Numbered from the stretch's first letter, positions 3,201 to 56,064 are shown. The stretch is DNA of 64,000 nt from Candidatus Dojkabacteria bacterium (GCA_016932785.1 JAFGCJ010000002.1:209777-273776); one strand, 5' to 3'. Translations and numbers: made by a program. The notes: a model not told the origin generated them from the sequence alone.

Positions 3201-4054
3201 AGCTGCAACGCATTCCTTGCTACAGTTCCAATAATATCTGTATATTGGCCGAAACCCTGAGCTTCTTGAACAAAAAGCATTGCCTCATCAGCATCAGCAC
3301 ACATAGCCGCAAGCCAGAAAAATTTTAATGAAGTGACAGAGACCAGGCCTACATGAGTTCCTTTTTTGACGTCGGAAATGAGATCAAGATATCTGAACCT
3401 CTCCGGATTCTCAGCTCTGGCACTTTCCAATATTGATACCGACGGATATTGGAAAACCGGCTCAATTTCACCCATAACTAAACCCTGAAAAGCTTTAACA
3501 CGCTGGTATTTACTTGTTTCCCCATCCACATCACAAAGTCTATCGATCAATACCTCCGCCTCAGGATTTACTGCTACAAATTTACGTGCCTGACTATTAG
3601 ATAGTCCGCCGCCTCCATTCGAAGAGATACCCTTCAATTTTGCTATAAGGTCGTGTTCTCTCCAAGAAAGAACGTGAGTTCTTACTATCGACAAGTAAAA
3701 AGCTTTATCCTCACCGGAAAAGAGTCGCATCATTCCTGAAATGGACAGGTCCCGACCGTCCTCGACTAAATCTGGGCCCACTTCTAAAGCTGACTCAAGC
3801 TCTGTTCTTATAGCCAAAAGGAAACAACATTGAGGTTTTATCCTCTCATATTCATCGGCGGTACAGCCCTCTATAAAATCAGGGGTTTCAAGCCAGGCTT
3901 GAGCTTGCTCGAGCTTTTCTGCAATATACTCACATTGAGCATCGATAACCTCAGGACTTTCTTGATTTTCCGGATTAAGCAAAACCAGAGCTTCTGAAAC
4001 ATCCCGAACAGATGTTCCCAGCGCCTCTAATTCGCCTTCGCTTGCTTTAGCCAT
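251..4054 (-). CDS. large hypothetical protein (1267 aa), acidic, no obvious TM segment, basic Gly/Asn/Lys/Arg tail
   Basis: Uninterrupted 3.8-kb ORF. I recognise no family motif. The C-terminus reads GGNGGNGGGKKGTRKRTSKKLRRAKD. It is co-oriented with the two paralogous ORFs upstream. Confidence 0.7.
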   Translation of the reverse strand: MAKASEGELEALGTSVRDVSEALVLLNPENQESPEVIDAQCEYIAEKLEQAQAWLETPDFIEGCTADEYERIKPQCCFLLAIRTELESALEVGPDLVEDGRDLSISGMMRLFSGEDKAFYLSIVRTHVLSWREHDLIAKLKGISSNGGGGLSNSQARKFVAVNPEAEVLIDRLCDVDGETSKYQRVKAFQGLVMGEIEPVFQYPSVSILESARAENPERFRYLDLISDVKKGTHVGLVSVTSLKFFWLAAMCADADEAMLFVQEAQGFGQYTDIIGTVARNALQLLFQGEPDLEMIRAASLSLDAAFLLEHLNEDLVRGLINVAIKKFYGGDTDTSLEQVSSFRSLVLILAEEMWNVDSEALTLEEALMLVDKCHDTPDSQEWPESLRDPRAAVISIFLHDLTAYADWPEEDRTRLIEILYLMIEDNVLDPNVFMSSQEYDAEVQSYGDIPDRWFGAGPASALREIVTDVAGRLTEPFSIRKDSRKAEVLSSEDFFGEIFNLSEVRYDRDLLNPWAPLPETDSKTAKLLVEALRRYFLTKFAIGYKEQVEEHREFRFDGTYPLLMSDIIPLDLESMDRDEALWRVQEVNSTAARIFKGTFYDYLVQQAGPAAKAADVSREKFFELGSAMTGYPVELCLQLFTDVCGVVGIEVPDEIDEEKIAGLKAYIDMMYFCDDDILIPYLAPRSELHYEVMHALFGGDGNIVPLSTVRDEFASYDSVLAISQNVLARKASDDEILSIAGDVYRRVLVSIVRHTSDWSSSNLETAHQRGDFAREMVGKYLAGGVRLETELQQSIWEDYWYGYLPVEVLRAGGANTDFGYIPETRDYIREQSPAGLPKLEGAISALSEVADRLSDFSSAISLARDVTDLLHGSDGVGISAFPNLVGEAKQQVLDTFSPLFPGWAPRYVADLGAVLLSMNNEVQGRIVSGQVGVAELRQSIGEELSAALDKANSAWMTLCGFSNEGLTVVDLSINTGASPAEDFSSDTVEDSLFELVHQAGESIKDLDEAVDSHCVKAQLAAWKPGIEGEDLREMISTAVKVRDDLRGSGKVTRKLEVIDDEVLEERLSAWKDSLVSLLSDDTVRAAILSARNVGELVDAIEGKQTEVISRTMESGLDTLKMHPLFLPLRELNKKYGKAPVRRFVVALIGDKSFRKAKDDTLLIDILCNSQNERLSMDVVDLRTIDRRLDMLCALDFGRTDEAMELEMEREWLQGVQRRGGNGGNGGGKKGTRKRTSKKLRRAKDTADRFGLRVEDVTEDMPVAYYR

Positions 4055-9497: not shown

Positions 9498-10439
9498 CTA
9501 AGACGCTACATTTGTCGGATTTCCGCTAGCATAACTCTCCAAATTGCTTACAAAGATCTCTCTCTTTGCCTCACCCGCCTCGTCAGAGATATATCCAATT
9601 GGTGGATAAATAATGCAATTCTCATATTTTGATAGTCTCTTTAGATCTTCCTCCTCCATCTCATCAGAGTGATCGAGAATAAAAGTAATGTCACCCTTTT
9701 CCAGCCGACCGATTAGTGCTTCAAGGTCAACAAGTTCCATAGGAGCAGTATTAACAATGACAGCTCCATCCTTAATCTTTTCTATTCTGTCAGCATTCAG
9801 AAAGTTCTCAGTTTCATCGTTAAGAGCCAGATGCAATGAAATAAAATCACACGAAGCTAACAAATCATCCACCTCAGAATACTCTACACTTTTATTCTCG
9901 ATATCCTTTTGATTCCTGGACCAGTATTTAACATTTGCTCCAAACCCTGCGGCGATTTTTGCAACCCTCTGACCTATTCTACCAAGACCAACCACTCCGA
10001 AGTTTTTATCCTTAATCTCAGTAGCAGAAAAACCATCCTCAGAATAATTACCCTCTCTAGCCTGTACCTTAGCTCTCTCTAAATCCCTGATATATTCCAA
10101 TATAACTGCAAAAACGAGCTCCGCAACCGACTCGGTGCTGTATCCGGGAACATTGCAAACAGTAATACCTTTTTCTTTAGCATATTCAATATCAATCTTT
10201 CCATAACCCGTCGCAAAAACTCCAATATACTTTAGATTTGGAGCAGCACCCATCATATCTCTATCGACTGGATTAAATTTCACAAACAGAGCATCAGTAT
10301 CTTTCAAATGCTCTTTTAGTTCAGGTGAATCCGCAGACAGGAAAACCTTACTCTCCGCTACTTCATAGATACGATTCCAATACTCGTCTGAAAGTTCAGG
10401 TTCGGTCATACCGGTAATAACGATTTTTTTGAATTTCAT
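9498..10439 (-). CDS. D-isomer-specific 2-hydroxyacid dehydrogenase-like NAD-binding protein (catalytic residues apparently substituted)
   Basis: Rossmann motif GVVGLGRIGQRVAKIA. The family block VNTAPMELVD stands where NTARG is expected, and YPPIGY where TPHIG is expected. I chose the ATG at 10439 over the TTG at 10454. Confidence 0.7.
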   Translation of the reverse strand: MKFKKIVITGMTEPELSDEYWNRIYEVAESKVFLSADSPELKEHLKDTDALFVKFNPVDRDMMGAAPNLKYIGVFATGYGKIDIEYAKEKGITVCNVPGYSTESVAELVFAVILEYIRDLERAKVQAREGNYSEDGFSATEIKDKNFGVVGLGRIGQRVAKIAAGFGANVKYWSRNQKDIENKSVEYSEVDDLLASCDFISLHLALNDETENFLNADRIEKIKDGAVIVNTAPMELVDLEALIGRLEKGDITFILDHSDEMEEEDLKRLSKYENCIIYPPIGYISDEAGEAKREIFVSNLESYASGNPTNVAS

Positions 10440-10631
10440 ATGTGGTACATGCAAATTTTATTCCTTTAGGATTATAAACCTTTGGATAGATTAAGGAAAA
10501 TAGAATCTGAATAGTAATACATATTCGCTTAGATACTCACCTTTTTACGAGCACGAAAAAGATCAGACTACATCATGATTTTTTATGTCGTAAATCATGA
10601 TAGGGTACCAGACGCGGTACTTCCGATTCCG

Positions 10632-20983: not shown

Positions 20984-21754
20984 TTACTTGTCGGCCTGGG
21001 ATCCAGAGATCTCAGGTCGATGTACAATAACCATTCTCCCCAGATCACCGGAATATACTTTGAAATTAAAGACCGTTGTAAGTGTATCAGGAGATAAATC
21101 CGACTCACTTATTTCAGGAAAAACTTTCGGCGTAAGATCAGTCTTGATCAATATCCACAATTTATCTGTCACCAATCCAGTTACACTGGCATTGCTGGAT
21201 AAAAATGATCTAATATCTGTTTCTGAGAAAAAAGAATACCATGATCCAGATCTCCCATCTTGCGAATTCGAATCTGTGTGCGGCGGATGGGTATGCATAT
21301 TGAATAGAAACTGAACAACTACCCTCTTTTTATTCTTAAGTTCACGCAGCGGTACTGTTTTCTTAGAATAAACATTTGCATCGACCTTTACTATTTTCTC
21401 GGCATATTGGGATGTGGCAGATACTTGTTTATAGGAGACTTTAATGCTTTGCTTGGGTATATTTACTTTGGAAGCCTCTCCCCTCACACTATGTGTGACG
21501 ACGACATCGCCATCAGCCCACCACACATTAATAGCTCTTTCATGCTTATCCCCTGAGGTATGCCTATGTATTTCTGTAACCTTTTGCCAAAAGTCTGAAG
21601 GAAACGAAATGGCATTAGGAAGGAGATTGTAAGTCTGATAATTTCCACTATCATTCCAATGAACAATCTGTCCTCTAAGAGAATTGAAATGAACAGAAGA
21701 AATCTTGTTCGAAGGTCTAAATATGTTAATAATATTATCCCAAAAGTTGCTCAT
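20984..21754 (-). CDS. hypothetical protein with a JAB/MPN-like HTHP...SETD motif
   Basis: MHTHPPH...SFFSETD resembles HxH...SxxD of JAMM metalloproteases, but with a longer spacer. Confidence 0.4.
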   Translation of the reverse strand: MSNFWDNIINIFRPSNKISSVHFNSLRGQIVHWNDSGNYQTYNLLPNAISFPSDFWQKVTEIHRHTSGDKHERAINVWWADGDVVVTHSVRGEASKVNIPKQSIKVSYKQVSATSQYAEKIVKVDANVYSKKTVPLRELKNKKRVVVQFLFNMHTHPPHTDSNSQDGRSGSWYSFFSETDIRSFLSSNASVTGLVTDKLWILIKTDLTPKVFPEISESDLSPDTLTTVFNFKVYSGDLGRMVIVHRPEISGSQADK

Positions 21755-22416
21755 TGAATTATTTTGATATAATCGGCCAAGAATACTTACTCAGTATCCC
21801 AAAAATGAAGACAATATTCAAGAAATTATATAGAAACTTGCACTGGATTATAGTTATATTTCTATTCCTTTATACCTTAATCCCGATACTTTCTCCGGTA
21901 CTATTTCACTTTGGCTACTATAGAAGCGCCTGGTGGATACAGACAATATACCGGTTTCTATGTCATCAAAGACCTGAACGCTCGCTTTTTCTGTTCGGCG
22001 AGAAGATCAGCTATTCTTTGAATGAACTCGAAAAACTTGGATACAATACAAAAGTAACCGGTTACCCATTTGTCGGAAACGAATACATCGGTTACAAAAT
22101 TGCCTTTTGTACAAGAGACACCTTTATTTATGGATTGATGACAATTACCGGATTCATAACCAATCTTTCCAAGAAAAAGATTTCTGTCAAATACTGGGTT
22201 GTAATTTTGCTTGTCCTTCCGATGATTCTTGACGGTACAATCCAATTTATTTCTGAATTCTTATACCTGGGGCAGGACACATTTAATCTCACGGTACAGC
22301 ATCCTTTCTACCTAAGTAATAACCTAAATCGAGCTATAACAGGAGGACTATTTGGTACCGGAATAGGTCTGGTTATTTTTCCCGAGCTTAAAACAGCCAC
22401 AAGGGAAGACTACTAG
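21754..22416 (+). CDS. DUF2085-like membrane protein
   Basis: CHQRPERSLF motif and multiple TM segments. Confidence 0.6.
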   Translation: MNYFDIIGQEYLLSIPKMKTIFKKLYRNLHWIIVIFLFLYTLIPILSPVLFHFGYYRSAWWIQTIYRFLCHQRPERSLFLFGEKISYSLNELEKLGYNTKVTGYPFVGNEYIGYKIAFCTRDTFIYGLMTITGFITNLSKKKISVKYWVVILLVLPMILDGTIQFISEFLYLGQDTFNLTVQHPFYLSNNLNRAITGGLFGTGIGLVIFPELKTATREDY

Positions 22417-22474
22417 CCCAGAGTTTCGTATCCCTGCTTCGCTGAAGCCTAACATCATGATATAATCTTACATA

Positions 22475-23563
22475 ATGTCAAAATCTCAAACCCAAACACT
22501 ACGAATCGAGATATCTCCAAAGACAATATTCCTAATACTTGGAATTATTGCAGGGATAGCATTTCTTTTGACTATACGAGACGTATTAATCATCTTCTTC
22601 TGGTCATTTGTCTTCGGATCAGCAGCAATTCCAATTGTTAAAAGGCTTACAAAGCTTAAAATACCAAGATGGGCTGCAGTAGTTCTTGTATATCTTGGGA
22701 TATCAATTCTTGCAATAGGCCTTTTTTCCGCCATTTCTGTTCCGTTGGCCAAGGAGGTCGTAAATTTATCCGATAATCTACCAACAATATCCAAGCGAAT
22801 AGTTGGAATAATTAACAAAATCGGCGAACTAATAGGTTTAAATAAGGACATCATTGAGACTTCATCAATAGACAGTTCTTTCACACCTATCGAAGAGAAA
22901 ATCTCTGAAGGTCTAAAGGATTTACTATCAGCAAGCGCAGGAGGATTTCCTGGAATAGTAAGACTTCTTGTTTCACTCTTCGGAGGTATGCTAAACGTTT
23001 TTTCTGTTTTCACTATCTCTTTCTACATAGCACTTGACCACGATAATTTTCTCGATGCCCTACTTAAAGCCATTCCGAACCGAGACCTTAGTAAAAAAAT
23101 CGACAAGCTTCTTTCAGATATCGAGACAAAACTTGGGAACTGGATCGTCGGCCAATTTACCGTAAGCTCAATTACCGGGTTTATTATCTGGCTCATGCTA
23201 ACAATAGCAGGCGTTCCCTACGCTCTACCTCTTGCTCTCTTTGGATTCCTTGTTGACTCTATACCAACAATCGGTGCCACCCTAGCAACAGTACCAACCG
23301 TATTGATCTTGCTTGCAAGTGGTACCCCAGTTCAACTTATCGTAGTCATTGTAGGATACATACTCATTCAGCAATTCGAAAACAACATCGTGATCCCAAG
23401 GGTCATGTCTTCAGCAATAGGACTGCCTCCAGTAGTTGTTATTCTAACCCTATTAGTGGGCGCAAAGCTTTTCGGCTTTATGGGCGTACTACTTGCAATA
23501 CCTATCGCGACTATTTTGAAATTGATACTTGATTTCATATCCCAGACTAACTCTCAAGATTGA
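22475..23563 (+). CDS. AI-2E family transporter (PerM-like)
   Basis: Polytopic protein with SIPTIGATLATVP and QQFENNIVIPRVM blocks. Confidence 0.8.
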   Translation: MSKSQTQTLRIEISPKTIFLILGIIAGIAFLLTIRDVLIIFFWSFVFGSAAIPIVKRLTKLKIPRWAAVVLVYLGISILAIGLFSAISVPLAKEVVNLSDNLPTISKRIVGIINKIGELIGLNKDIIETSSIDSSFTPIEEKISEGLKDLLSASAGGFPGIVRLLVSLFGGMLNVFSVFTISFYIALDHDNFLDALLKAIPNRDLSKKIDKLLSDIETKLGNWIVGQFTVSSITGFIIWLMLTIAGVPYALPLALFGFLVDSIPTIGATLATVPTVLILLASGTPVQLIVVIVGYILIQQFENNIVIPRVMSSAIGLPPVVVILTLLVGAKLFGFMGVLLAIPIATILKLILDFISQTNSQD

Positions 23564-23624
23564 CACACTTAGAACATAAAACTACAATAGTAGTCGAGTA
23601 ATAACACATTATTAGGACTGCCCT

Positions 23625-26198
23625 ATGAGTCTTATAAACCCAAAAAATGAAGTAAGAATATTTGTGGACGAGGATTTTACTGCCAACGACGTAAAAGAAG
23701 AATTGGTTGGCAGGAAAGGGTATTCCCTATTTCGGCTTAGAGATATGGATGTACCGGTCCCCTCGTTTATGTGTATATCATCAGGTCTTTTCTCAGAGTA
23801 CATCGCTTCATCTTTAGGATCGCTTACATCAAGCGCATCAATTTCAGAGATCAACAAAAAAATTCTCGAAGGCAACTTTCCCGATCCACTTAAAGAGGAG
23901 ATCCAAAGAGGTTACTCAAGGCTATCAGGTTTCACCGATTCCTGGGTTGCCGTACGGTCATCCATTGTTCCACCAATAAATCAAAAAGAACTGGCATTTT
24001 CAGGACTACTCGACACTGTACTCAACGTGAAGGGTGTTGATGATCTACTTGCTGCTATTAAAAAAGTATACGCAAGTGCATTTACAGAGAGAGTCGCCTC
24101 TTATCTAAGAGCAACAAATTCATCAATAGCTGAAATAAAGGTATCAATAGTCGTTCAAAAAATGATCCAAGCAGAAGCTTCAGGAATTGTTTTCACTATT
24201 GATCCTATTTCACAGAATAGTGAGTACCTAACTGTTGAGTCTGTATTTGGATTAGGCGATGTTATTGCAGCGGGTGAATTAACACCGGATCAGTACATAA
24301 TCAACAAAAAAACCCTAGACTTCAAAGAGAAGCGTATTGTTCCCCAGGAATGGATGATGGTCAGAAAGGTAAAACACAAAGATGGAGAAGGTGCCACACA
24401 AAAGGTCCGAATTTCCAAGGCTTGGCAACACCAACAAAAGCTGGATAACAGATACTTAGAGGAACTGGCAAAGATTTCGATGACAATAGAGCAGAAAGCC
24501 TCTGGTCCTCAGGATATAGAATGGGTTTTTGAAGGTGGCCGGCTATGGATTTTACAAACACAAGACGTCAAGCCCGTATCGATCGAGAAAACTGAACCCG
24601 ACCCTACCCTCAAGATCGACAAAGACATAATAGACTCTGCAAAAGCCATAGCAGAACGAGAACAATCAAAAAAGAAGATTATGGAAGAACTTGCCAAAGA
24701 GAGAGAAGAGCATCCATCAAAAGAAACAATAAAACCAAAAGAAAATCATAAGAACGAGGAAGAGGTATTTGCGGCAAAGCCATTCAACAGACAGGTTGTC
24801 CAAGCCCCAAGAAAGGAAAAATCTAAGGTTGAAAGAAGAGAAATTCAAAATATTCCACCTCACAAAGGAGAACGGCTGGTACTTACCGGAATTGGTGCAA
24901 GCAATGGATCATATAGGGGCGAAGCCGTCATTATCCAGAACGCAGACGAAATTAAAGAGAATGAACCACGCCTCAAGAAAGACTTCGTTTTAGTATTTCC
25001 AGATTTCTTTCCGGAGCTGGAAAAATACATTACTAAGGCCGGGGCTATTGTTTCCGACCAGGGTGGAATTACAAGCGATATAGCTATCAGGTGTCGCGAG
25101 CAAGGAATTCCCTGCATAATGGGAAGCCACATTGCTAGTCATATGATCAAACAGGGAGAACCTATTCTTATCGATGGAAATGTTGGTGCCGTTTATGGTG
25201 TAAGAGAAGTCGCCCCTCCAAGTAAGAGTGAAGATCTGCCACAATCTCAAAATGAGAAGCCTCAAGACATAGAGATTAAAGCCGAACCTGCAGAGGTTAA
25301 GGCCCAAGAACAAGAGCCAGAACCTGTCACCGCAAAAATACGGACCGCTACAAAAGTATTTATAGACCTATCAGACTCCTATCTCAAGGGAGAGAAATGG
25401 GAAGAAATGATACCGGAATCTGACGGTGTAGCAACAATTCAGGTCGAGGACATCTATAAAAAGTTCAAGCGACACCCCGAAGCCTACATCGAAGAAGGAA
25501 AATCCAAAGAACTTATAGATAATATAGCTAATGAGCTTTCAGCGGTATGCGAACGCTCAGAAGGAAACACTGTCATCGCAACAATCGGCAGCATGACCGT
25601 CGACGAGTATCAAAAACTTGTCAAAGGATCATCTTACGAAAAATGGACAGACGAAAGCGGTATAAAAGATCACTCAGCTGGACTTCCCCGCCTCTTACAA
25701 AGACCAAAAGAATTGGATCTATTTTTTAAAGCTATAAGGACTGTTAGAAATAAGCACGGCTGGAGAAACATCTCCATTGGCGTTAACTTTCCTACGACAA
25801 CAAAGAACTTCATCGAATTCAAGAAGCTTCTCAGCGCAGCAAAACTCAGAAGATCCTCAACATTCAAAGTATTTCATGTAATCGACACCCCCTCTGAGGC
25901 TATGACGTCCGAAGAGTTCGTTGAGATAGGCATAGATGGAGCAGTAATCAATGTAAACAGCCTAGCCAAACTAATGATGGCACCAGCTCTAGATGACGAG
26001 AGTGTTTTAAAGATTATAGACAAAATATCACAGAGCTGGAGAGGATCCACAGTGATAATTCAAACCTCCAAAGATTCAGAGAAATTGATCGAACGCGCTG
26101 TTAGAGTTGGTTCCTACGGTCTTGCTGTACAACCAAATGAACTCACAGAAGCCAGACTGTCAGTCTCACAAACAGAAGCCAAAATTGCCTTATCATAG
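23625..26198 (+). CDS. PEP synthase / pyruvate phosphate dikinase-like protein with a degenerate swivel and C-terminal domain
   Basis: Nucleotide-binding N-domain blocks: VAVRSS, VVQKMIQAEASGIVFT, DIEWVF..LWILQTQ. The swivel block GGITSDIAIRCREQGIPC stands where GGxTSHAAIxARExGIP is expected. The C-terminal part resembles the PEP-utilising TIM barrel only weakly. Confidence 0.75.
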   Translation: MSLINPKNEVRIFVDEDFTANDVKEELVGRKGYSLFRLRDMDVPVPSFMCISSGLFSEYIASSLGSLTSSASISEINKKILEGNFPDPLKEEIQRGYSRLSGFTDSWVAVRSSIVPPINQKELAFSGLLDTVLNVKGVDDLLAAIKKVYASAFTERVASYLRATNSSIAEIKVSIVVQKMIQAEASGIVFTIDPISQNSEYLTVESVFGLGDVIAAGELTPDQYIINKKTLDFKEKRIVPQEWMMVRKVKHKDGEGATQKVRISKAWQHQQKLDNRYLEELAKISMTIEQKASGPQDIEWVFEGGRLWILQTQDVKPVSIEKTEPDPTLKIDKDIIDSAKAIAEREQSKKKIMEELAKEREEHPSKETIKPKENHKNEEEVFAAKPFNRQVVQAPRKEKSKVERREIQNIPPHKGERLVLTGIGASNGSYRGEAVIIQNADEIKENEPRLKKDFVLVFPDFFPELEKYITKAGAIVSDQGGITSDIAIRCREQGIPCIMGSHIASHMIKQGEPILIDGNVGAVYGVREVAPPSKSEDLPQSQNEKPQDIEIKAEPAEVKAQEQEPEPVTAKIRTATKVFIDLSDSYLKGEKWEEMIPESDGVATIQVEDIYKKFKRHPEAYIEEGKSKELIDNIANELSAVCERSEGNTVIATIGSMTVDEYQKLVKGSSYEKWTDESGIKDHSAGLPRLLQRPKELDLFFKAIRTVRNKHGWRNISIGVNFPTTTKNFIEFKKLLSAAKLRRSSTFKVFHVIDTPSEAMTSEEFVEIGIDGAVINVNSLAKLMMAPALDDESVLKIIDKISQSWRGSTVIIQTSKDSEKLIERAVRVGSYGLAVQPNELTEARLSVSQTEAKIALS

Positions 26199-26273
26199 GC
26201 TAAATTGCCCACAAAAATAATCTTAGAACCCATCGATAAACGCATGACAACTAATACTGTATAATCCCTGCAT

Positions 26274-28910
26274 ATGACCAACAAAATGACGCCTATGATG
26301 CGTCAGTACAACAATCTTAAACAACAGTACAAGGATAAAATACTTCTTTTTCGCATGGGAGATTTTTATGAGACCTTTGGAGAAGATGCAAAGATTACAG
26401 CCAAGGTCCTTAATATTGCTTTAACAACGAGAGATAAGAATGATGACCCTACTCCTCTTGCCGGATTTCCTCATCATGCAATAGATCAATATCTTCATAA
26501 ATTTGTTCAGGCAGGGTATAAGGTCGCAATAGCGGATCAAGTTGAAGACCCAAGTCAAGCCAAAGGCATCGTCAGACGGGAAGTAATAAGAGTTGTAACG
26601 CCCGGTACGGTAACAGAAGACAAATCACTCGACGAAAATCAGAATAATTTTCTTGCCTCCGTATATTTTTCCAACAAAGTATACGGCATAGCCCTCTGCG
26701 ACCTTTCAACGGGAGAATTTCGGGTTACAGAGACAAAGGATAGATCAAGAATGAGAGATGAGATTGCAAGAATTAATCCCTCGGAGATCCTCATCGCTCC
26801 TCATTCCGATTTTTCAGACCTCTCAGATTATTCCATCCAACCCATTGAAGACTATAGTTTCGACGAAAAAGATGCCAAGGAAATTCTAACCAACCACTAC
26901 AACATAAAAAGTCTTGCCTCATTTGGAATAAATAATTACAAATCTGCTATTGCTGCAGCAGGGGCCATTATCTTTTATCTCGAAGAAACTCAGAAGACAG
27001 AAGTTTCTCACCTTCAGACTATTCAATACTACGACTTAAACGGAAATATGATTTTAGATTCGGCCACCATCAGGAACCTCGACCTTCTATATTCTGAAGG
27101 GGAACATGGAAAAAAGAGTACCTTAATATCCGTTATTGACAGAACGAAAACATCCCACGGCGGAAGGGTTCTTAGACAATGGATTCTACACCCGTTGATA
27201 AACGCAATAGAAATATCTGACCGACTCAATCTAGTTGATACATTATTTCAAAACCCTTCTCTGTTAACTAACGTTCAAGAAATACTTCGAAATATTTCTG
27301 ATCTTGAAAGACTGTGCGGAAAACTCGGCCTTAACAGAGCAAACGGAAGAGACCTAAACGGAATATCTGAATCGATAGAGCACTGTTTTGAGCTTCAAAA
27401 AGCTCTGAAAGACGAACAGACATTTACCTCATTACTAAAAGAATTTACAAAATCCAGACATAGAATAATCGAAATGAAAAAGCTCATCGATAATTCAATT
27501 GTGAAGAACCCTCCTATAACAATAACTGAAGGTAACATAATAAAAGAAGGATATAGTAAAGAAGTAGATGACATAAGAAGCAAATCAGGAGGCAGCAGAA
27601 AATGGATATCAGAACTCGAAAACAAGGAACGAGAGAGAACGGGTATACCATCTCTTAAAGTCAAATCAAACAAAGTCTTCGGCTACTATATTGAGGTCAC
27701 AAATACTCACAAAGATAAAATCCCCGAAGACTATATTCGAAAACAAACTCTTGTGAACTGCGAAAGATATATAACCCCCGAACTAAAAGAAAAAGAAGAA
27801 ATTGTTTTCAACGCCCAGGAAAAACTCGCGGAATTAGAATACGAGTGCTTTCAAGAGATTAGAACCAAAGTTCTTAAAGAGATTGATACTATTCAGAGAA
27901 TTTCCCAAATCATAGCGCAAATTGATGCAATATCATCCTTAGCTGAGTCCGCGAGAGTCAATGACTACAGCAGGCCAGAAATTTTTGATCTTGGCGAAAA
28001 AGATGGCTTAATCGATATCAAGAATGCCAGACATCCAATAGTTGAAAAGACAATCGACGAGGAATTTATAAGCAATGATATTACAATGGATTCAAAGGAG
28101 AATCGTCTACTAATTCTAACCGGTCCAAATATGTCTGGAAAATCCACATACATACGTCAGACTGCGCTCATTCTTCTAATGGCTCAGATAGGAAGTTTTA
28201 TACCGGCAAGTTCAGCACGAATTTCAATTACCGACAGAATTTTCACAAGAGTCGGTGCGTCTGACGATCTCTCTGCTGGAAGAAGCACCTTCCTGGTAGA
28301 AATGGACGAGGCGGCAAATATAATCAACAACGCCACTCATAATAGCTTCATTGTACTAGACGAGATTGGACGAGGAACAAGCACCTATGACGGTGTATCA
28401 ATAGCCTGGGCAATTGCCGAATATATCCACAACAGTGTTAGAGCAAGATGTGTATTTGCTACACACTACCACGAGCTTCTTAAACTCGAATCAGAACTAG
28501 ACGGAGTAAAAAACTACAACATTGCCGTACTAGAAAAAGACGACAATATTACATTCCTAAGGAAAATTGAGAAAGGCGGAACAGATAAGAGTTACGGAAT
28601 TTACGTTGCCAAAATGGCCGGACTTCCAGATTCATTGATCCAGAGAGCCAAAGAAATCCTTAACGGCTTTGAACAAGAAAACATGTTCGGAGTAAGAAGT
28701 GAACCCGTAAGAAAAAGTAAAAAAGAAAAGGTCACTGAACAGCAACCGATTGAAGATGATCACCAAGACCAGCTAAACTTTATGGACAGCTCAAACTCAA
28801 TTCCAAATCTTTTTAGTGATCTGGAAGATATTGATATCAACCACATTACCCCGGTTGAAGCACTTAGACTTCTTGAGAAATGGAAACGGAGACTTACTCG
28901 TCAGTCTTAA
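26274..28910 (+). CDS. mutS: DNA mismatch repair protein MutS
   Basis: N-terminal MMRQY..KQQY..LLFRMGDFYE, Walker A TGPNMSGKST and DEIGRGTSTYDG. Confidence 0.95.
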   Translation: MTNKMTPMMRQYNNLKQQYKDKILLFRMGDFYETFGEDAKITAKVLNIALTTRDKNDDPTPLAGFPHHAIDQYLHKFVQAGYKVAIADQVEDPSQAKGIVRREVIRVVTPGTVTEDKSLDENQNNFLASVYFSNKVYGIALCDLSTGEFRVTETKDRSRMRDEIARINPSEILIAPHSDFSDLSDYSIQPIEDYSFDEKDAKEILTNHYNIKSLASFGINNYKSAIAAAGAIIFYLEETQKTEVSHLQTIQYYDLNGNMILDSATIRNLDLLYSEGEHGKKSTLISVIDRTKTSHGGRVLRQWILHPLINAIEISDRLNLVDTLFQNPSLLTNVQEILRNISDLERLCGKLGLNRANGRDLNGISESIEHCFELQKALKDEQTFTSLLKEFTKSRHRIIEMKKLIDNSIVKNPPITITEGNIIKEGYSKEVDDIRSKSGGSRKWISELENKERERTGIPSLKVKSNKVFGYYIEVTNTHKDKIPEDYIRKQTLVNCERYITPELKEKEEIVFNAQEKLAELEYECFQEIRTKVLKEIDTIQRISQIIAQIDAISSLAESARVNDYSRPEIFDLGEKDGLIDIKNARHPIVEKTIDEEFISNDITMDSKENRLLILTGPNMSGKSTYIRQTALILLMAQIGSFIPASSARISITDRIFTRVGASDDLSAGRSTFLVEMDEAANIINNATHNSFIVLDEIGRGTSTYDGVSIAWAIAEYIHNSVRARCVFATHYHELLKLESELDGVKNYNIAVLEKDDNITFLRKIEKGGTDKSYGIYVAKMAGLPDSLIQRAKEILNGFEQENMFGVRSEPVRKSKKEKVTEQQPIEDDHQDQLNFMDSSNSIPNLFSDLEDIDINHITPVEALRLLEKWKRRLTRQS

Positions 28911-30699
28911 TCTGATCTTTTACATCCTCCAACGCAATAAGACTTTGAGAACCTTTTTTCATATCCTTCAACTGAACTTTGTTCTCCTTCAGCTCATCCG
29001 GTCCCACAACTACTACCCAAGGTATACCGGTCTTATTCGCATATCCAAACTGGCTTTTTAATGAAGTTACATCAGGGTAAAGCATGGCTGAGATATTCTG
29101 TTTCCTAAGATAATCAGCAATCCTCAGAGAGTCCTTCCATAAATTTTTATCAAAAATAGTCACCAAGACTTCAGCCTCGGGTTTACTGAAGTCTTTCATC
29201 TTTCTATCTCGCATTATGTCGCAAATTCTCTCAATACCAAACGAACCCCCTGTTGCAGGAATATCACGCCCGATATATCGGCTGATCGCTTCATCATATC
29301 GTCCACATCCAGCTATTGATCCGACATTTCCATCAATAATTTCGAATTCCCAGACAGGTCCGGTATAAGAAGCCAACCCACGTGCAAGAGATGGATCGAA
29401 TTCATATTTGCTTTCATCTATATCTACGGCCTCAAGATAATCTGCTATCTGGAGAATCTCATTTAGACCTTCATTTCCGATCTTAGAATCTCCTACAGCC
29501 TTTCTCATTTCTTCGATTGTCTCCCTGTAACTCTTGTTCTTGTACCTTTCAATATTTGTTATATCAAGGGTTTCTTCAGCCACATCCCTACTAATTCCAC
29601 GAACCTCTACCATTTCGTCAATAACTTCTTTTGCTCCAATCTTCTGTAACTTATCCAGAGAGACACAAAATCCATAGAATTTGTTCTTATCGACACCAAT
29701 AGAATCAGCCAAGCCTTCAAGAAATTTCCGGTTACTTATTCTCACTTTGTACTCCTTAAATCCTAAACGGTTAACAACGTCGAGCCCCATTTGCATGTGT
29801 TCAGCATCACAGATCATTGACGAACTTCCAACAGTATCCGCATCACACTGAGTAAATTCTCTGTACCGCCCTCGCTGGGTATTTTCGGCCCTCCATGTTC
29901 GCTGTATCTGGTATCTCTTATAAGGAAGCTTGATATCGCCAAGATTTTGGGCCACAGCTCGGCACATAGAGATCATAACTTCAAACTTAAGCATAACATC
30001 ACGGTCACCAGGATCTTTAAACATATAGAACTGCTTTTCCGCCTCTTCACCGCTTTGTCCCAACATCAGATCAGCATATTCGACAGCAGGCGTTTCAAGA
30101 GGTTCATAGCCATACCTTTCAAAGACATCCTCAAAAGTTCCAATTACAAACTTCCGAAGCCTCATATCAGGACCAAAGAAATCTTGAAAGCCCTTAAGTA
30201 ATCTAGGTTTTTTAACTTTTGTCTTGTTATTTTTCTCCATAGCATTTTTTGGCATTAATTCAGCTGTAATCTGAAATGTGTTCTTGCCCTTTTTCTCAAA
30301 TTTTATAATACTAAAAGTCCCATATTCTGCAATTTCCCTTGTATTCTCAACATGTGGACCAATGCAAGCCTGTGTATTCACATCCCCAATAATGGTAAGA
30401 GTTATCTCATTTGCGCTTTCAGGCACAAGCGAGATATCTATTTTCCTTCTTTTGGCTTCCTCCCTATCTATCTTAACAAATTCTACAGGTATATTTCTAG
30501 CGGTAATAGCATTTACCTTATCCTCAATATATTCCTTCGTCATATAGCTAGGCATTTTTTCAACTTTGAAAGGAAATCTCACTTTATCATCAGAAATTTT
30601 CAATCCATATATAGAAATCCTTCCACAGTTCTTTTCAAGAATACCTGAAAGTATATGATCACAGGTATGCAATCTTTTAAAAGTGCTGTCTTTAGACAT
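28894..30699 (-). CDS. hisS: histidine--tRNA ligase with an N-terminal AlaX-like (tRNA_SAD) domain
   Basis: HisRS blocks WRAENTQRGRYREFTQCDAD and GCGRYD, plus a C-terminal anticodon-binding domain. The N-terminal ~165 aa carry HTCDH and CIGPH, the HxxxH and CxxxH zinc motifs of AlaX/editing domains. I chose the ATG at 30699. The GTG at 30813 lies inside predicted RNA helices. Confidence 0.85.
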   Translation of the reverse strand: MSKDSTFKRLHTCDHILSGILEKNCGRISIYGLKISDDKVRFPFKVEKMPSYMTKEYIEDKVNAITARNIPVEFVKIDREEAKRRKIDISLVPESANEITLTIIGDVNTQACIGPHVENTREIAEYGTFSIIKFEKKGKNTFQITAELMPKNAMEKNNKTKVKKPRLLKGFQDFFGPDMRLRKFVIGTFEDVFERYGYEPLETPAVEYADLMLGQSGEEAEKQFYMFKDPGDRDVMLKFEVMISMCRAVAQNLGDIKLPYKRYQIQRTWRAENTQRGRYREFTQCDADTVGSSSMICDAEHMQMGLDVVNRLGFKEYKVRISNRKFLEGLADSIGVDKNKFYGFCVSLDKLQKIGAKEVIDEMVEVRGISRDVAEETLDITNIERYKNKSYRETIEEMRKAVGDSKIGNEGLNEILQIADYLEAVDIDESKYEFDPSLARGLASYTGPVWEFEIIDGNVGSIAGCGRYDEAISRYIGRDIPATGGSFGIERICDIMRDRKMKDFSKPEAEVLVTIFDKNLWKDSLRIADYLRKQNISAMLYPDVTSLKSQFGYANKTGIPWVVVVGPDELKENKVQLKDMKKGSQSLIALEDVKDQIKTDE

Positions 30700-31041
30700 T
30701 TTTGTGTTGTGCTTTAATTTATTTCCGAAATACTCTAAAATCGGGTTAAGCTCGCAGCCGGTACATTCGAGTAGATAAGGAAAAAATACGTAAGTAGTTT
30801 TTCTATTTCTCACTTAAGCGGCTGCGAGCTTCGTTATTGTAGAGGTGGGAACCCCCGAAGGGGCTCCCTTTTTCTTTGTGAGCAAGGCTCCGATTAGGTA
30901 TGATCGCCGATACGGAACATTCTCAACACCTCCCCTCAATATATTTTGGGCTTCTCAAAGTTACAGTGAGAGCCACTTAATGGAAACACGATTTTGCATC
31001 CACTAAGGGACTCTCATCCTCCAAACTTGATCAAAGAGCCA
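30700..31041 (-). ncRNA. candidate structured leader or ncRNA between tRNA-His and hisS (identity unknown)
   Basis: Three helices stand out. One is a 16-position hairpin at 30968-31015. One is a 9-bp helix capped by UUCG at 30847-30868. One is a 13-bp perfect long-range inverted repeat, 30748-30760 with 30819-31831 read as 30819-30831. In the first two, the non-Watson-Crick positions are G-U on the minus strand but A-C on the plus strand. Confidence 0.35.
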
Positions 31042-32618: not shown

Positions 32619-33773
32619 CTACTTCTTCTTAGATTTCGGCGCAGCCTTCTTTGCAGTCGATCTCCTACCCTTTTTCAACAAATCCATCTTATTTCTTATC
32701 ACTGCACCAAGAACTACAAGGAACAATATATATCCGTAAAGAAGGTTAACACAGGGAATCCATCCTATTACCAAGCTCAGAACACGACCTGCAAGCAAGG
32801 AAATATAGTAGCTGTCATCTTTAACACCAACAAGCTTTACTATACTTCTACCTACGGCCATATCAGCCCAGAGTACTCCAATCCATGCAACAAAAGCTAG
32901 AAATCCTATGATAAGACCACCTAACGGCATCCCAATAAGCGTAATAATCAATACTATCGAACCGACTCCGAGCACTATTGAACCAAGGAATCCGTACAAA
33001 AGACTCATGAAGAACTCGCTCCAGCTTGCAGAAATCTTCTCGACCATAATCTTAGTTTTAACAGGAGCCAACCATATAAGAACAGCGCCCACAACGAACA
33101 TTCCTACCCAGACTGCTGCGTTAGCAATAATGTTGAAGGTAGAAGACGCTCTACCAAATCCCTCCACCTCCCTCTTTGTACTCTTGGTGGTCTTTTCCAT
33201 ATCAACGTTCTTCTCAACATCGCCTGCGACTTTGTCTTCATCGATCTTCACATCTCCACCAGAAACAATAGCATCGCCTCTAACCTCAGACTTTATATCC
33301 AAACTCCCACCTGCAGCTCGAAGATCATCCCCAACAAAACCATCAACCGAGACCTGTCCCCCGCAGGCTACAACATCCTCAAACACGCTTGCGTCAGAAA
33401 GAATTCTTACCTGACCTCCAAACGAAATAATGCTCCTTCCGACTATACCGGATATTTCGACTTGCCCTCCAGCAGCATATATTGACCCATCAATATTTCC
33501 AGAGACTGAAACCATTCCCCCGGTCACATAGAGATCTCCCATAACATTACCGGATACTTCAACGTTACCACCGGAAGCTATGAGATCACCAACAACGATA
33601 CCTTCTACTTCGACCTCGTCACTGAATATGTAGAGATCGTCGTCTATAGTCTCATCCTCTCCAATAGTTCCATCCTCGGTACGAATGTCAGCAGCATATG
33701 CTGAGAAAGGCATTAGCATAGCCAACATACCAAAAACCATTGAGAGCAACATTACTTTTTTTGCTCGCTTCAT
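32619..33773 (-). CDS. membrane protein with bactofilin-like (polymer-forming beta-helix) repeats
   Basis: Signal peptide, then repeated (G)D.....GG.V.V.G units, then about 4 C-terminal TM segments and a basic tail. Confidence 0.6.
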   Translation of the reverse strand: MKRAKKVMLLSMVFGMLAMLMPFSAYAADIRTEDGTIGEDETIDDDLYIFSDEVEVEGIVVGDLIASGGNVEVSGNVMGDLYVTGGMVSVSGNIDGSIYAAGGQVEISGIVGRSIISFGGQVRILSDASVFEDVVACGGQVSVDGFVGDDLRAAGGSLDIKSEVRGDAIVSGGDVKIDEDKVAGDVEKNVDMEKTTKSTKREVEGFGRASSTFNIIANAAVWVGMFVVGAVLIWLAPVKTKIMVEKISASWSEFFMSLLYGFLGSIVLGVGSIVLIITLIGMPLGGLIIGFLAFVAWIGVLWADMAVGRSIVKLVGVKDDSYYISLLAGRVLSLVIGWIPCVNLLYGYILFLVVLGAVIRNKMDLLKKGRRSTAKKAAPKSKKK

Positions 33774-40322: not shown

Positions 40323-41747
40323 TCACATACGGCAAATGTCAAAAACCTTCGCAACTTCAATAATAGAGTTTCTTGTTTTACCGACAATACCAGATCCGGT
40401 AACCATTATCACCATATCTTCCTCACTCAAATACCCCCGTCTTAATCCATATTCAGCAAGCACTCTTACAATCCAGTCTCTATCAGCAGGAAGCTTATCT
40501 TCGACATAGATCGGTCTTACTCCCCTAACAATGTTCAATTGCCTCATTAGCATAGGAGAACCGACAAAAGCTACTATTTCTGGAATCGGGCGATGACGAG
40601 CTATGGAAAGAACAGAGTTTCCAGTTTTCGACCCTACAACGATCTTGCTAATCGGAAGCTCACATGCCAGTTCTATTACAGTTCTACCAATTGCATCCGT
40701 CTCAACAGCAGAGGAGGTTCTCCCTTCCATTAGATCTGAATGACAAACATCTTCAGCCGCAATGCATGACTTTGCCATATACTCAACAGCCTTTACAGGA
40801 AACTCTCCCACAGATGTCTCTGCAGAAAGCATGACAGCATCGGCACCATCGAAAACAGCGTTTGCAACGTCACTCATCTCTGCCCTTGTCGGTCGTGGAC
40901 TCTCTCTCATGGACTCAAGCATCTGTGTAGCCACAACTACCGGTTTTCCTTTCTTTCGGCACTTATAGACCATCATCTTTTGCATTATTGGAACTTTCTC
41001 GATTTCCATCTCCACACCAAGATCTCCTCGAGCAACCATAATCCCATCGACTTCTTCCAGAATCCTGTCGAAATTCTCAATCCCTTCGCTGTTCTCGATT
41101 TTCGCAATAACTTTTGTCTCAGATGTTCCAACAATCTTCTTTATTGCTGCAACATCCTCAAGGTTCCTAATGAAAGAAGCGGAAACAAAATCAAACTTGT
41201 TTTCAACTGCATATTCAATGTCTTCACGATCTTTTTGAGTTAATGGAGGAAATGTCAACTTCTTCCCAGGTAAAGTAACCGTCTTCTGCGATTTTACCTG
41301 TCCTCCAAACTTAACCTCACATCGAACAGTTTGTCCCAAGACCTCAACGACCTCAAGCTCTATATTTCCATCGTCAATCAGAACTGAATCACCAGGACTT
41401 ACACTCTCCAATAAATGAAGGTAATCAACCCAAACATCCCCATTTCCTTCACTAACACCTATCTCAAAAAAATCGCCTTCTTGAATGTTTATTGGAGCAT
41501 CAAGCTTGTTTATACAGATCTTATGGCCCTGAGTATCAAGCATTAAAGCAACATTCTCTGAGAGATTCCGTATCTGCTTTGCTACTCGAGAAAGCTCGTC
41601 ATGATCTGCAAAAGAAGTGTTAATTCTTGCAACAGTCATTCCTCTTTCAATCATCTTTTTCAAAACGTCATCGTCCCAGGTTGCTGGTCCTATGGTCGCA
41701 ATTATTTTTGTTTTAGGAAGCCTCTCTGGCAGTGAGGATTTTTGCAT
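40323..41747 (-). CDS. pyk: pyruvate kinase
   Basis: TKIIATIGPA, MVARGDLGVE and VATQMLESM blocks. Length 474 aa. Confidence 0.92.
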   Translation of the reverse strand: MQKSSLPERLPKTKIIATIGPATWDDDVLKKMIERGMTVARINTSFADHDELSRVAKQIRNLSENVALMLDTQGHKICINKLDAPINIQEGDFFEIGVSEGNGDVWVDYLHLLESVSPGDSVLIDDGNIELEVVEVLGQTVRCEVKFGGQVKSQKTVTLPGKKLTFPPLTQKDREDIEYAVENKFDFVSASFIRNLEDVAAIKKIVGTSETKVIAKIENSEGIENFDRILEEVDGIMVARGDLGVEMEIEKVPIMQKMMVYKCRKKGKPVVVATQMLESMRESPRPTRAEMSDVANAVFDGADAVMLSAETSVGEFPVKAVEYMAKSCIAAEDVCHSDLMEGRTSSAVETDAIGRTVIELACELPISKIVVGSKTGNSVLSIARHRPIPEIVAFVGSPMLMRQLNIVRGVRPIYVEDKLPADRDWIVRVLAEYGLRRGYLSEEDMVIMVTGSGIVGKTRNSIIEVAKVFDICRM

Positions 41748-45189: not shown

Positions 45190-46806
45190 CTATTTACCCG
45201 AAGTAAGAGTAATTTTTATATTGTTGGTATCCTTATCTCCTTCTTCCTTAAACTTCTTCAAAAACTGCTCTTTTGAATAGACCTTTCCTTTCTCAGGTTT
45301 ATCATTTCCTTCATCTTTATCAGATCTGTCTTTTTCTTTTGTATTTTCTGACTGATCTTTTTTATCATCACCACTCTTTTCTTTGGGTGACTTCTCGTCT
45401 CCCTTGCTTGTATTTTTTTCTTTATCATTTTTCGTCTTAGATTTTTCTGCGTCTGAGCCAGAATCCTCAGGGTTGACACATTCAGACTTTTCTTTTTCAT
45501 CACGTTTAGAATCTTTCTTTTTACTTTTCTCTTTCTTCTTTCCAGAATCCTTGCTGCTCTCAACCTTCTTATCTCCCACCCCCACTCCAAGACTTGCAAA
45601 TTTCTCCCTTAATGAAGGAGTTTGACCGTTATTCTTTTTCTCCATAAGTTCTTCTGATTTCTTAAATAATTTCTCAGAAATCTCTCCCGAGTCCCTCTTC
45701 TTAAAGACACTTACAGTCATTCTTCCTATAAGAACAAGCAAAAGCCCTGCTAACACAGCAAAACCTGCAAGAACAAGATAGATGTTATCCTCGGTTATAA
45801 TATTTTGTATAGAAAACCCCTCGTCATTTCCATCAGAATCTGAGTCCCCTCCAGATTTTTTCCCAACTGAAAACTCAAACACATCTGAGAAATTACTTGC
45901 GTAACCGTCCTTTCTTACCAAAGCTACAGCTGAGTGATCACCTGAAGACACCTCATCATCAATAACAGTCTCCCAATTGCCATCCTTATCTACATCAATC
46001 ACAGTTGTAATGACATCACTGCTAACCATAAGCACAACCTTTGAATTCGGTAAAGCCGTACCAGACAATTCAACCTCTTCATTGCTCTTAAAGTCCTTTT
46101 TCTGTTCATCACTGAATGCTGGAGGTCTCGGTATAACAATAATTGTCTCCTCTAAATACTGCGTAACCTCTTCCTCGTCTTTAAACTTGAAGTTAATAGT
46201 GTGCTTGCCTATGGAAAGCGATGGAAGAATGAATGGGCTTTTCTTTTTACTCATCCCTTCTCCATCAACTTGGATTTCGACACCATCTTCTGTGGGTTCA
46301 ACAAAAGTAATTGCATAGTTGGGATTATCGGTCTCCTCCGGAAGCTGCAATTTCAGAAGGTCGCGAATCTTCTGCCTTCTCTCCTCCTCGACATCATCTA
46401 CTACACTATCTACTTCATCTGAGTTATCATCTGCTTCAGCCACAACTTGATTCTCAGATTCATCTGTATCACTAGATTCAGATGAATCCTGATCTTCTCT
46501 AGAGCTACCAGTAGAATCCGAACCAAGGTCTACTTCGGAAAAAACCCCTAGAACCCTTTCGGTATCATCGTATACACTCATTTCCGTATGCAAAATATCT
46601 TCAGCTTTATCCATAAGCTTATTTACCTCACTAAATCTTGTATAGAAAAACAATCCCGCTGCACTGGTAAAACAAATCAGGGTTACCCAATAGAGAATTG
46701 CTGCCTTATCACTTAAATTATTATTTGGATTTAAAGTTTCCTCAACCGCAAGAGGCTTAAGCTCCTTCTTTTTACTTTTCTTTTCCTTGTTTTTCCCTTT
46801 TTTCAT
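45190..46806 (-). CDS. membrane protein with an Ig-like domain and a Lys/Asp/Glu-rich low-complexity tail
   Basis: N-terminal and mid-protein TM helices. VDKDGNWETVIDDEV resembles the repeats in 19967-20974. The C-terminus is an extended KEKS/DK low-complexity stretch. Confidence 0.6.
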   Translation of the reverse strand: MKKGKNKEKKSKKKELKPLAVEETLNPNNNLSDKAAILYWVTLICFTSAAGLFFYTRFSEVNKLMDKAEDILHTEMSVYDDTERVLGVFSEVDLGSDSTGSSREDQDSSESSDTDESENQVVAEADDNSDEVDSVVDDVEEERRQKIRDLLKLQLPEETDNPNYAITFVEPTEDGVEIQVDGEGMSKKKSPFILPSLSIGKHTINFKFKDEEEVTQYLEETIIVIPRPPAFSDEQKKDFKSNEEVELSGTALPNSKVVLMVSSDVITTVIDVDKDGNWETVIDDEVSSGDHSAVALVRKDGYASNFSDVFEFSVGKKSGGDSDSDGNDEGFSIQNIITEDNIYLVLAGFAVLAGLLLVLIGRMTVSVFKKRDSGEISEKLFKKSEELMEKKNNGQTPSLREKFASLGVGVGDKKVESSKDSGKKKEKSKKKDSKRDEKEKSECVNPEDSGSDAEKSKTKNDKEKNTSKGDEKSPKEKSGDDKKDQSENTKEKDRSDKDEGNDKPEKGKVYSKEQFLKKFKEEGDKDTNNIKITLTSGK

Positions 46807-51649: not shown

Positions 51650-51727
51650 GGTGGATGTAGCTCAATTGGTTAGAGCGCCTGTTTGTGGCACAGGAGGTTG
51701 AGGGTTCGAGTCCCTTCTTCCACCCCA
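51650..51727 (+). tRNA. tRNA-His (anticodon GTG), second divergent copy, with G-1, C73 and CCA encoded
   Basis: Manual fold: G-1 then GTGGATG/CTTCCAC acceptor (a U6-U67 mismatch), anticodon arm CCTGT-TTGTGGC-ACAGG, T arm GAGGG-TTCGAGT-CCCTT. Confidence 0.8.
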
Positions 51728-54204: not shown

Positions 54205-54306
54205 TGATGTTCAACCTAATCTTAGATATAAACATCTAAATACCACGAATGAAAATGAAAACTACTAAATAACTTCTTAAAAAGTTCTTAGAAAAATCTC
54301 GACTGA

Positions 54307-55398: not shown

Positions 55399-55404
55399 TT
55401 GAAA

Positions 55405-56019: not shown

Positions 56020-56064
56020 TTTGTAAGAAATAAAATAACCGAAATCATTAAGGATTATACAACT

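Follow-up and report, generated by a model that had tools for sequence, protein, structure and literature searches.

The phosphoenolpyruvate (PEP)-utilising/dikinase family is defined by its phospho-carrier histidine. This analysis concerns a PpsA-like gene on a 64,000-nucleotide stretch of DNA from a Candidatus Dojkabacteria bacterium (GCA_016932785.1 JAFGCJ010000002.1:209777-273776; the whole stretch is called the window below), the product of which carries aspartate (Asp485) at the position of this histidine. The closest described system is PEP synthase (PpsA; EC 2.7.9.2), represented by the structures 8a8e, 9dae and 2ols (Neisseria). More distant points of comparison are VadK (Rv1127c) of M. 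tuberculosis, rifampin phosphotransferase (RPH; 5hv1, 5fbs) and the PEPut domain of the Bacillus/Geobacillus pyruvate kinase (2e28). To judge by alignments, residue conservation and predicted structure, the gene descends from an archaeal-type PEP synthase, has been repurposed and is under purifying selection across Dojkabacteria, a class within the Candidate Phyla Radiation (CPR). The PpsA/PPDK reaction is excluded on the residues read, because the PEP/pyruvate site is destroyed and the carrier His is replaced by an invariant Asp. The pattern of conservation indicates that selection is concentrated on the nucleotide/Mg site of the ATP-grasp domain and on the swivel motif GGx(T/N)SD. Tentatively, and with somewhat less than an even chance, the protein is read as a repurposed ATP-driven module in which Asp485 would take up phosphate as a transient acyl-phosphate and act as a switch.

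The gene and the parts of its product are as follows.

23625-26198, plus strand: PpsA-like gene, intact open reading frame (ORF) of 857 aa with ATG start
23682-24584, plus strand: ATP-grasp nucleotide-binding domain, residues ~20-320 (PPDK_N, 7.6e-62; predicted local distance difference test score, pLDDT, >90)
24597-24869, plus strand: linker 1, residues 325-415, with a long helix (331-362) and a disordered Lys/Glu-rich tether (365-403)
24870-25202, plus strand: swivel (PEP-utilizers mobile) domain, residues 416-526 (PF00391, 7.8e-15; pLDDT >90)
25062-25088, plus strand: motif GGITSDIAI where GGxTSHAAI is expected, placed by PDB and E. coli PpsA alignments
25077-25079, plus strand: GAT codon of Asp485 at the phospho-carrier His position, read directly
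25212-25325, plus strand: linker 2, residues 530-567, a disordered, acidic, Lys/Glu/Pro-rich tether
25347-26195, plus strand: C-terminal TIM barrel, homologous to the PEP/pyruvate-binding domain and aligning to the barrels of 8a8e and 9dae

The window protein resembles PpsA in domain order and folds, in the Lys, Arg, Thr, Glu and Gln of the ATP-grasp domain, and in the GGxTS part of the swivel motif. Unlike PpsA, it carries Asp in place of the carrier His and two long disordered linkers; at the PEP site two Arg, the Cys and the Asp that binds Mg have given way to other residues, and Asp stands for the Mg-ligand Glu. The Arg that follows the Mg-binding Gln is Lys or Gln, and the acidic 'TAED' loop is replaced as well. 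VadK, a PPDK derivative without PEP domain which autophosphorylates and regulates other enzymes, is likewise a dikinase-family protein that no longer interconverts pyruvate and PEP (PMC13400623). Its functional unit is the pair of ATP-grasp and swivel domains, and it provides a precedent for a regulatory role. VadK keeps its His422 and has lost the C-terminal domain, whereas the window protein has Asp and a dead barrel; being derived from PPDK, VadK is not a close relative, and the resemblance is functional only. RPH shares the ATP-grasp domain (template modelling, TM, score 0.81-0.83 between the modelled domain and the ATP domain of RPH) and a swivel mechanism repurposed from PEP, but its swivel domain is C-terminal with His825 and a rifampin-binding domain takes the place of the barrel, whereas the swivel domain of the window protein is central and the barrel is of the PEP type. 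The PEPut domain is a homologous swivel domain (4e-09) with a regulatory, not catalytic, role (PMC9009071); unlike the window protein, it is a single domain on a working pyruvate kinase and keeps the TSH motif. The literature search yielded no description of a His-less PpsA/PPDK or of an Asp-carrying swivel domain.

The protein is 100% identical to the NCBI entry 'hypothetical protein JW710_01860 [Candidatus Dojkabacteria bacterium]', and an AGGA is located 7 nt upstream of the ATG. Its domains follow the PpsA layout of ATP-grasp, swivel and TIM barrel. The Pfam search assigned residues 26-320 to PPDK_N (PF01326; 7.6e-62) and residues 451-521 to the PEP-utilizers mobile domain (PF00391; 7.8e-15), both above cut-off; PEP-utilizers_C (PF02896) was not detected in this search. 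The best phmmer matches in the PDB were the archaeal-type PEP synthases 8a8e (4.7e-66) and 9dae (6.7e-57), with alignments that include the C-terminal barrel, and the best match of the whole model in the fold search was PpsA 2ols (1.7e-38). By fold and descent the protein is placed in the PEP-utilising/dikinase superfamily, closest to archaeal-type PpsA. The comparison with curated models proposed in the preliminary description gave scores far below all cut-offs: 321.3 against 598 for NF005057 and 296.1 against 739.75 for TIGR01418 (both PEP synthase), 60.2 against 843.45 for TIGR01828 (PPDK) and 159.4 against 999 for NF041857 (rifampin phosphotransferase). The equivalent of PPDK His455 is absent too, which together with the score sets the protein apart from PPDK. 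NCBIfam matches included PigC, RedH and Rph, and HpeI appeared in the fold search.

The carrier position was located in several ways. In phmmer alignments the query GGITSDIAIRCRE was matched to GGrTSHAAIvsRE of the PEP synthases 8a8e, 9dae and 2ols, with Asp485 on the carrier His; in the alignment to E. coli PpsA, Asp485 stands opposite His421, and the hidden Markov model (HMM) of the swivel domain likewise sets it on the His column. With all of these, the three PDB alignments among them, in agreement, a misaligned catalytic His was ruled out, and no His of any member fell on the carrier column or close to it. The preliminary description had reported GGITSDIAI with GAT at 25077-25079 as residue 485, one transversion away from CAT, and this reading agrees with the alignments and the codon; the counter-case that it named, a catalytic His elsewhere, did not arise, since profile and structure alignments place none. 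The search for the same exchange in orthologues, which it had suggested, returned Asp and not His in 120/120 best homologues, down to 33% identity.

A search through all 1.84 billion cluster representatives yielded 1,540 relatives at E <= 1e-30, and a scan with one genome per species found a relative in 171 GTDB species genomes. The D-type relatives stem from many independent assemblies (NCBI, JGI, ENA, Logan). The carrier residue could be assigned in 215 alignable single-module relatives and was Asp in 162, His in 31 and another residue in 22. In a rough neighbour-joining tree, which is crude, a His-free clade of 170 sequences contained 159 with Asp; the exceptions named inside it are one Asn (P0135) and one Ala (P0137). 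Within GGx(T/N)SD the 162 D-type relatives have Thr in 138, Ser in 152 and Asp in all, and the Asp column is invariant in the 49-sequence alignment A1 (25-57% identity). Asp codons at the 82 loci with the motif were GAT in 68 and GAC in 14; the use of both codons argues that selection acts on the amino acid. As far as these alignments reach, conservation of the Asp column is far beyond chance. Helix 485-493 of the AlphaFold model begins with Asp485.

The Asp-type family is defined by GGx(T/N)SD, the motif EKxIxPQEWM, Lys or Gln at the position of Arg336, and a lost PEP site. In the query these read GGITSD, EKRIVPQEWM and Q313, and the PEP-site residues are gone. At NCBI the members are named 'PEP/pyruvate-binding domain-containing protein' or 'hypothetical' only, and many are labelled 'pyruvate, water dikinase' at JGI. 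The synteny counts given here refer to the best 80 loci, which belong to Dojkabacteria metagenome-assembled genomes (MAGs) or to generically named Patescibacteria MAGs; the Tyr-type assemblies JAFGDO01 and JAHIVN01 lie outside those 80. The Asp-type family is, on its sequences and their distribution, syntenic and class-wide in Dojkabacteria and not a one-off.

Three forms of the PpsA-like protein occur in Dojkabacteria, of which the window gene represents the 850-aa form. A second form of 720-750 aa carries GGxNSD and was linked to the first by profile comparison with 100% homology probability; it is without the region equivalent to residues ~590-690 of the barrel, and in its model the layout is unchanged except for a smaller barrel. 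The third form has Tyr at the carrier position ('DSY' in 15/19 sequences). Its motif is decayed, and the PEP-site Arg, Asp and Cys are lost, whereas the ATP-grasp residues persist and PF02896 can still be recognised. Its genes are located as follows.

L089, 8001-10478: Tyr-type gene
L090, 8001-10469: Tyr-type gene
L091, 3001-5505: Tyr-type gene
L096, 3001-5499: Tyr-type gene

The common core of the three forms consists of the ATP-grasp domain and a His-less swivel domain. The nearest His-bearing relatives are archaeal PEP synthases (Methanomassiliicoccales, Thermoplasmata, Woesearchaeota, Pacearchaeota), in agreement with the best PDB matches. A tie to the 'PEP synthase' of metabolically minimal DPANN archaea (bioRxiv 10.64898/2026.05.13.725050) was considered and rejected, because the Woesearchaeota/Pacearchaeota homologues P0399 and P0449 keep GGxT(S/A)H. 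The exchange of His for Asp was also seen outside the Dojkabacteria Asp clade (P0237, P0264, P0204, P0170, P0162, P0165); these scattered Asp carriers are all without the proton-donor Cys and most are without further PEP-site residues. By a hand count of the tree leaf order, Asp is the commonest replacement among His-less relatives (~8/28), followed by Tyr. Several entries in the range P0193-P0266 (1000-2600 aa) are unrelated multi-module giants with 2-6 His swivel domains (GGxTCHAAI repeats) and PPDK_N.

The ATP-grasp domain of the query keeps K31, R111, T131, E299 and Q311. The corresponding residues in E. coli numbering are kept among the 162 D-type relatives as follows: K27 in 155, R127 in 156, T146 in 152, and E320 and Q334 in 157 each. 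Across the Asp-type family the nucleotide and Mg residues are thus 94-97% conserved, which points to strong selection on the nucleotide site. Their equivalents in RPH (Lys22, Arg117, Thr136, Glu297) position ATP and Mg, as determined by mutagenesis and structure (PMC4844700). The preliminary description had called the N-terminal domain intact; this stands for the five residues above and not for the Arg of the canonical 'Q-x-R-P' (E. coli Arg336), which it had missed and which is Gln313 in the query and Lys in 81% of the Asp clade. Glu133 of the acidic 'TAED' loop is Pro in 85% of the clade. The changes of Arg336 to Lys and of Glu133 to Pro both line the nucleotide site and correlate with that of His to Asp. 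Several invariant aromatics and the motif EKxIxPQEWM are new clade-conserved features near this site.

The C-terminal barrel has lost the PEP site. Of its catalytic positions in the query, those now read as Q606, T653, S656, D754, S779 and S815 are replaced, and N778 is kept; at E. coli R511, R578, E680, N703, D704 and C751 the residues of the query are Q, T, D, N, S and S. The clade consensus differs again, with R511 replaced by D, R578 by S or T, E680 by D, N703 by P and D704 by R, and C751 variable; Asp is found at the R511 equivalent in 111/162 and at the E680 equivalent in 116/162 D-type relatives. At most positions of the former active site (Q606, T653, S779) the query does not follow the family consensus. 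In the PDB and E. coli PpsA alignments 'NVNSL' stands opposite 'GTNDL' or 'GSNDM' and 'VID' opposite 'MIE' or 'CEI', which, together with the missing PF02896 match, bears out the degenerate PEP/pyruvate domain noted earlier. Conservation of the catalytic face against the remainder of the barrel was 0.485 vs 0.499 in the Asp clade and 0.678 vs 0.569 in canonical sequences. Only K733, R743, D771, G772 and G829 are at least 90% conserved in the C-domain across the clade, and the Asp-Gly pair D771-G772 is present in E. coli PpsA too. Mean identities of the N-terminal, swivel and C-terminal domains were 0.45, 0.37 and 0.27 in the Asp clade against 0.38, 0.48 and 0.42 in canonical sequences, so that constraint in the Asp clade, measured by identity, has shifted toward the N-domain. 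A new active site on the barrel was considered and is unsupported, the catalytic face not being preferentially conserved in the Asp clade.

All three domains were folded with confidence by AlphaFold (mean pLDDT 86.4), and the modelled barrel matched archaeal PEP-binding domains with TM scores of 0.77-0.81. The two Lys/Glu-rich linkers of the preliminary description were recovered as insertions relative to E. coli PpsA; Lys and Glu make up 32-38% of the linkers (34-38% of linker 1) against 19% of the whole protein. With pLDDT <50 at residues 365-403 and 530-567 the linkers are predicted to be disordered, and the mean identity of linker 1 in the clade is 14%.

According to the preferred reading, the ATP-grasp domain would still bind Mg-ATP and the tethered swivel domain would still dock on it. 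Asp485, behind Thr483/Ser484 at the helix start where the His sat, would present an oxygen nucleophile and yield a short-lived acyl-phosphate; formation of an acyl-phosphate from a carboxylate and ATP is the usual chemistry of the ATP-grasp superfamily. Carboxylates, among them the side chains of Asp and Glu in peptides, are phosphorylated by ATP-grasp carboxylate ligases, and aspartyl phosphate (Asp~P) serves as a transient phospho-carrier in response-regulator receivers, HAD enzymes and P-type ATPases. Receiver and HAD domains have no sequence or fold kinship with the swivel domain, and the likeness would be mechanistic only. As no acceptor site is left in the barrel, the phosphate would most likely go to water or, in trans, to a partner. 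The outcome would be an ATP-driven autophosphorylating switch or regulator with a logic like that of VadK, in which the His is kept, and the dead barrel might serve as a scaffold or oligomerisation domain. The acyl-phosphate is supported by the kept Thr/Ser, the same helix-start geometry and the correlated changes at the docking site, where the acidic loop is removed and Arg is exchanged for Lys. The more specific notion of a natural swivelling Asp~P carrier, in which an ATP-grasp domain would have reverted to carboxylate phosphorylation, on an Asp of its own tethered domain, is rather unlikely; we know of no ATP-grasp enzyme that phosphorylates Asp on its own tethered domain. The Tyr variant of the sister clade could be a second O-phospho solution.

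Several points weigh against a phosphorylated Asp485. The phosphorylation itself is purely inferred. In canonical dikinases the beta-phosphate is attacked and AMP is released, a reaction that a carboxylate might not support. By estimate, Asp is ~1.5-2 Å shorter than His, so that another docking geometry would be needed. Gln313 of the query departs both from the Lys of the family and from the canonical Arg, and the AlphaFold predicted TM score of 0.47 leaves the relative placement of the domains unfixed. The sister Dojkabacteria clade has Tyr, and remoter His-less relatives have F, E, S, K, R or Q, so that not every relative needs an acidic nucleophile. Finally, Asp is a favoured helix N-cap residue, and conservation of Asp485 could be structural, as an N-cap or as a phosphomimetic.

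The last point leads to the principal rival, a nucleotide-binding pseudoenzyme (a sensor of ATP, ADP or AMP, or a scaffold) in which nothing is phosphorylated and Asp485 caps helix 485-493 or mimics a phosphate. This is quite possible, at clearly less than an even chance. It accounts for the loss of all catalytic residues of the second active site and for the unconstrained barrel face. Experimenters have replaced His by Asp in the TSH motif of PykA's homologous PEPut domain to mimic phosphorylation; this domain has a regulatory, non-metabolic role in B. subtilis (PMC9009071). Asp485 does open a helix, the Tyr sister clade keeps the same ATP-grasp residues despite its degenerate motif, and the position drifts in His-less relatives outside the main clade. 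N-caps normally tolerate Ser, Thr, Asn and Gly, yet Asp is near-invariant here; the flanking phosphate-cradling motif GGx(T/N)S is kept, and the barrel Arg residues that would receive a phosphomimetic are now acidic or small. Pseudoenzymes usually lose their nucleotide- and Mg-binding residues, and the ~97% conservation of the Mg ligands E299 and Q311 fits catalysis better than mere binding.

A dikinase or kinase with Asp~P as carrier and another small-molecule acceptor in the remodelled barrel, comparable to RPH, PigC/RedH or glucan-water dikinase, is improbable. The dikinase family has repeatedly evolved new acceptor domains, as the PigC, RedH, Rph and HpeI matches recall, the barrel is well folded in the model, and the former PEP/Mg site holds the conserved Asp at the R511 and E680 equivalents. 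An acceptor site, however, is at odds with a catalytic face no more conserved than the remainder of the barrel, with the few strongly conserved C-domain residues, two of them shared with E. coli PpsA, with the departure of the query from the consensus at most former active-site positions, and with a short form that dispenses with part of the barrel. That the protein is a working PEP synthase or PPDK, with the phosphate on Asp485 or another residue, is very improbable; the JGI annotation of many members and the PpsA fold and domain order speak for it, but in no member does a His align with the carrier position or its surroundings, the two phosphate-binding Arg, the Asp that ligates Mg and the Cys that donates the proton are all exchanged, the Glu ligand of Mg has become Asp, the curated models score far below their cut-offs, and the window encodes a pyruvate kinase. 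The chance of an artefact, whether an error of sequencing or assembly at 25077 or a pseudogene in decay, is negligible: GAT and CAT are one base apart, but all D-type relatives examined share the Asp, they come from numerous independent assemblies, and both codons are used among them; the intact 857-aa ORF, confident folds and synteny in 72/80 loci do not agree with decay. Sequencing error and pseudogene were accordingly ruled out by the orthologues. Without carrier His and PEP site the canonical three-step phosphotransfer cannot run, as had been concluded before. The three options left by the preliminary description (pseudoenzyme, Asp as acyl-phosphate carrier, another role) are narrowed by exclusion of the canonical reaction, of error and of decay.

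Where pyruvate kinase is absent, CPR reconstructions bring in a PEP synthetase to connect PEP with pyruvate (PMC7304191). For Dojkabacteria this assignment is unsafe, because the protein is without both catalytic centres that it would need. Dojkabacteria have been described with extremely minimal metabolic complements (PMC7304191), and their retention of an 850-aa protein at a fixed genomic position suggests that its function is probably important. The invariant natural exchange of His for Asp with the ATP site kept provides a natural experiment on whether an ATP-grasp and swivel pair can run on an acyl-phosphate. If Asp~P were demonstrated, it would constitute a new mechanism, and the carrier would represent an ATP-driven switch complete in itself, kept throughout an entire CPR class.

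The following features of the window belong to the genomic and metabolic context.

22475-23563, plus strand: AI-2E family transporter gene, directly upstream of the PpsA-like gene (PF01594, 1.9e-57)
23560-23588, plus strand: candidate sigma-70-like promoter TTGACA-17-TACAAT, 11/12 consensus matches, just 5' of the PpsA-like gene in the gap that follows the AI-2E family transporter gene
26274-28910, plus strand: mutS, directly downstream (Pfam MutS domains I-V)
40323-41747, minus strand: pyruvate kinase (Pfam PK barrel 6.3e-107, PK_C 1.6e-17), ~14 kb from the PpsA-like gene
9498-10454, minus strand: D-isomer 2-hydroxyacid dehydrogenase

The candidate promoter is the top-scoring sigma-70-like site within 21500-29200 and a consensus match only; the region contained 20 such sites against 19.2 in shuffles, i.e. 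no excess. The AI-2E family transporter gene lies directly upstream in 72/80 related loci, and mutS is located at most 6 kb downstream in 71/80 long-form loci, usually at 40-90 bp, often with the histidyl-tRNA synthetase (HisRS) gene next. The short Asp-type form adjoins mutS too, but has other upstream genes. An obligatory operon with mutS or the AI-2E transporter was considered and is unsupported: the PpsA-like gene has its own promoter-like site and mutS has a TGTATAAT element. In some genomes insertions, among them an IS200-type transposase gene and an opposite-strand ORF, intervene before mutS, and the upstream gene differs in the short form. The adjacency to mutS and AI-2E may be gene order inherited within one class; given a single class and a promoter-like site of its own, synteny is a lead and not evidence of function. 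Directly ahead of the Tyr form there is always a Na_H_Exchanger + TrkA_N (Kef-like) gene. Long Asp form and Tyr form are thus each found directly 3' of a same-strand membrane transporter gene (AI-2E family and Kef-like, respectively), which could stem from common descent of the gene order or could mean that the proteins are functionally tied to the transport of ions or solutes.

The PpsA-like gene is the only one of its kind in the window. The first WS6 genomes were reported with only lower glycolysis and without gluconeogenesis (PMC5113843). With a pyruvate kinase in the window and WS6 without gluconeogenesis, a PEP synthase would have no obvious use here, which fits repurposing. Pyruvate kinase and D-2-hydroxyacid dehydrogenase together would give a fermentative end from PEP through pyruvate to a lactate-type product, independent of the PpsA-like gene. 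A homologue of PpsR/DUF299, the regulator of the motif Thr, was found neither in the window nor in related flanks totalling 1.5 Mb, a result confined to these sequences. The PADLOC search for anti-phage defence gave no family match for the query or two relatives.

Elsewhere in the window, a 1267-aa ORF at 251-4054 (minus strand) has no Pfam match at E <= 1e-5, as is the case for other ORFs of 300-540 aa, e.g. 45190-46806, 32619-33773, 49690-50823 and 60989-62200. A large serine recombinase (Resolvase + Recombinase + Zn ribbon) is encoded at 51662-53191 (minus strand). The adjoining stretch of ~54000-60000 has a GC content of 0.36 against ~0.40-0.42 and is full of ORFs without Pfam match; it may represent an integrated mobile element or prophage remnant. 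The domain tRNA_SAD is the 'second additional domain' of Thr- and Ala-tRNA synthetases. It was detected (PF07973, residues 142-179, 1.1e-07) ahead of the HisRS core (208-530) in the HisRS ORF at 28894-30813 (minus strand). This ORF comprises 639 aa with the predicted start, against 432-472 aa for HisRS in other Dojkabacteria loci, and its 3' end overlaps the convergent 3' end of mutS by 17 nt.

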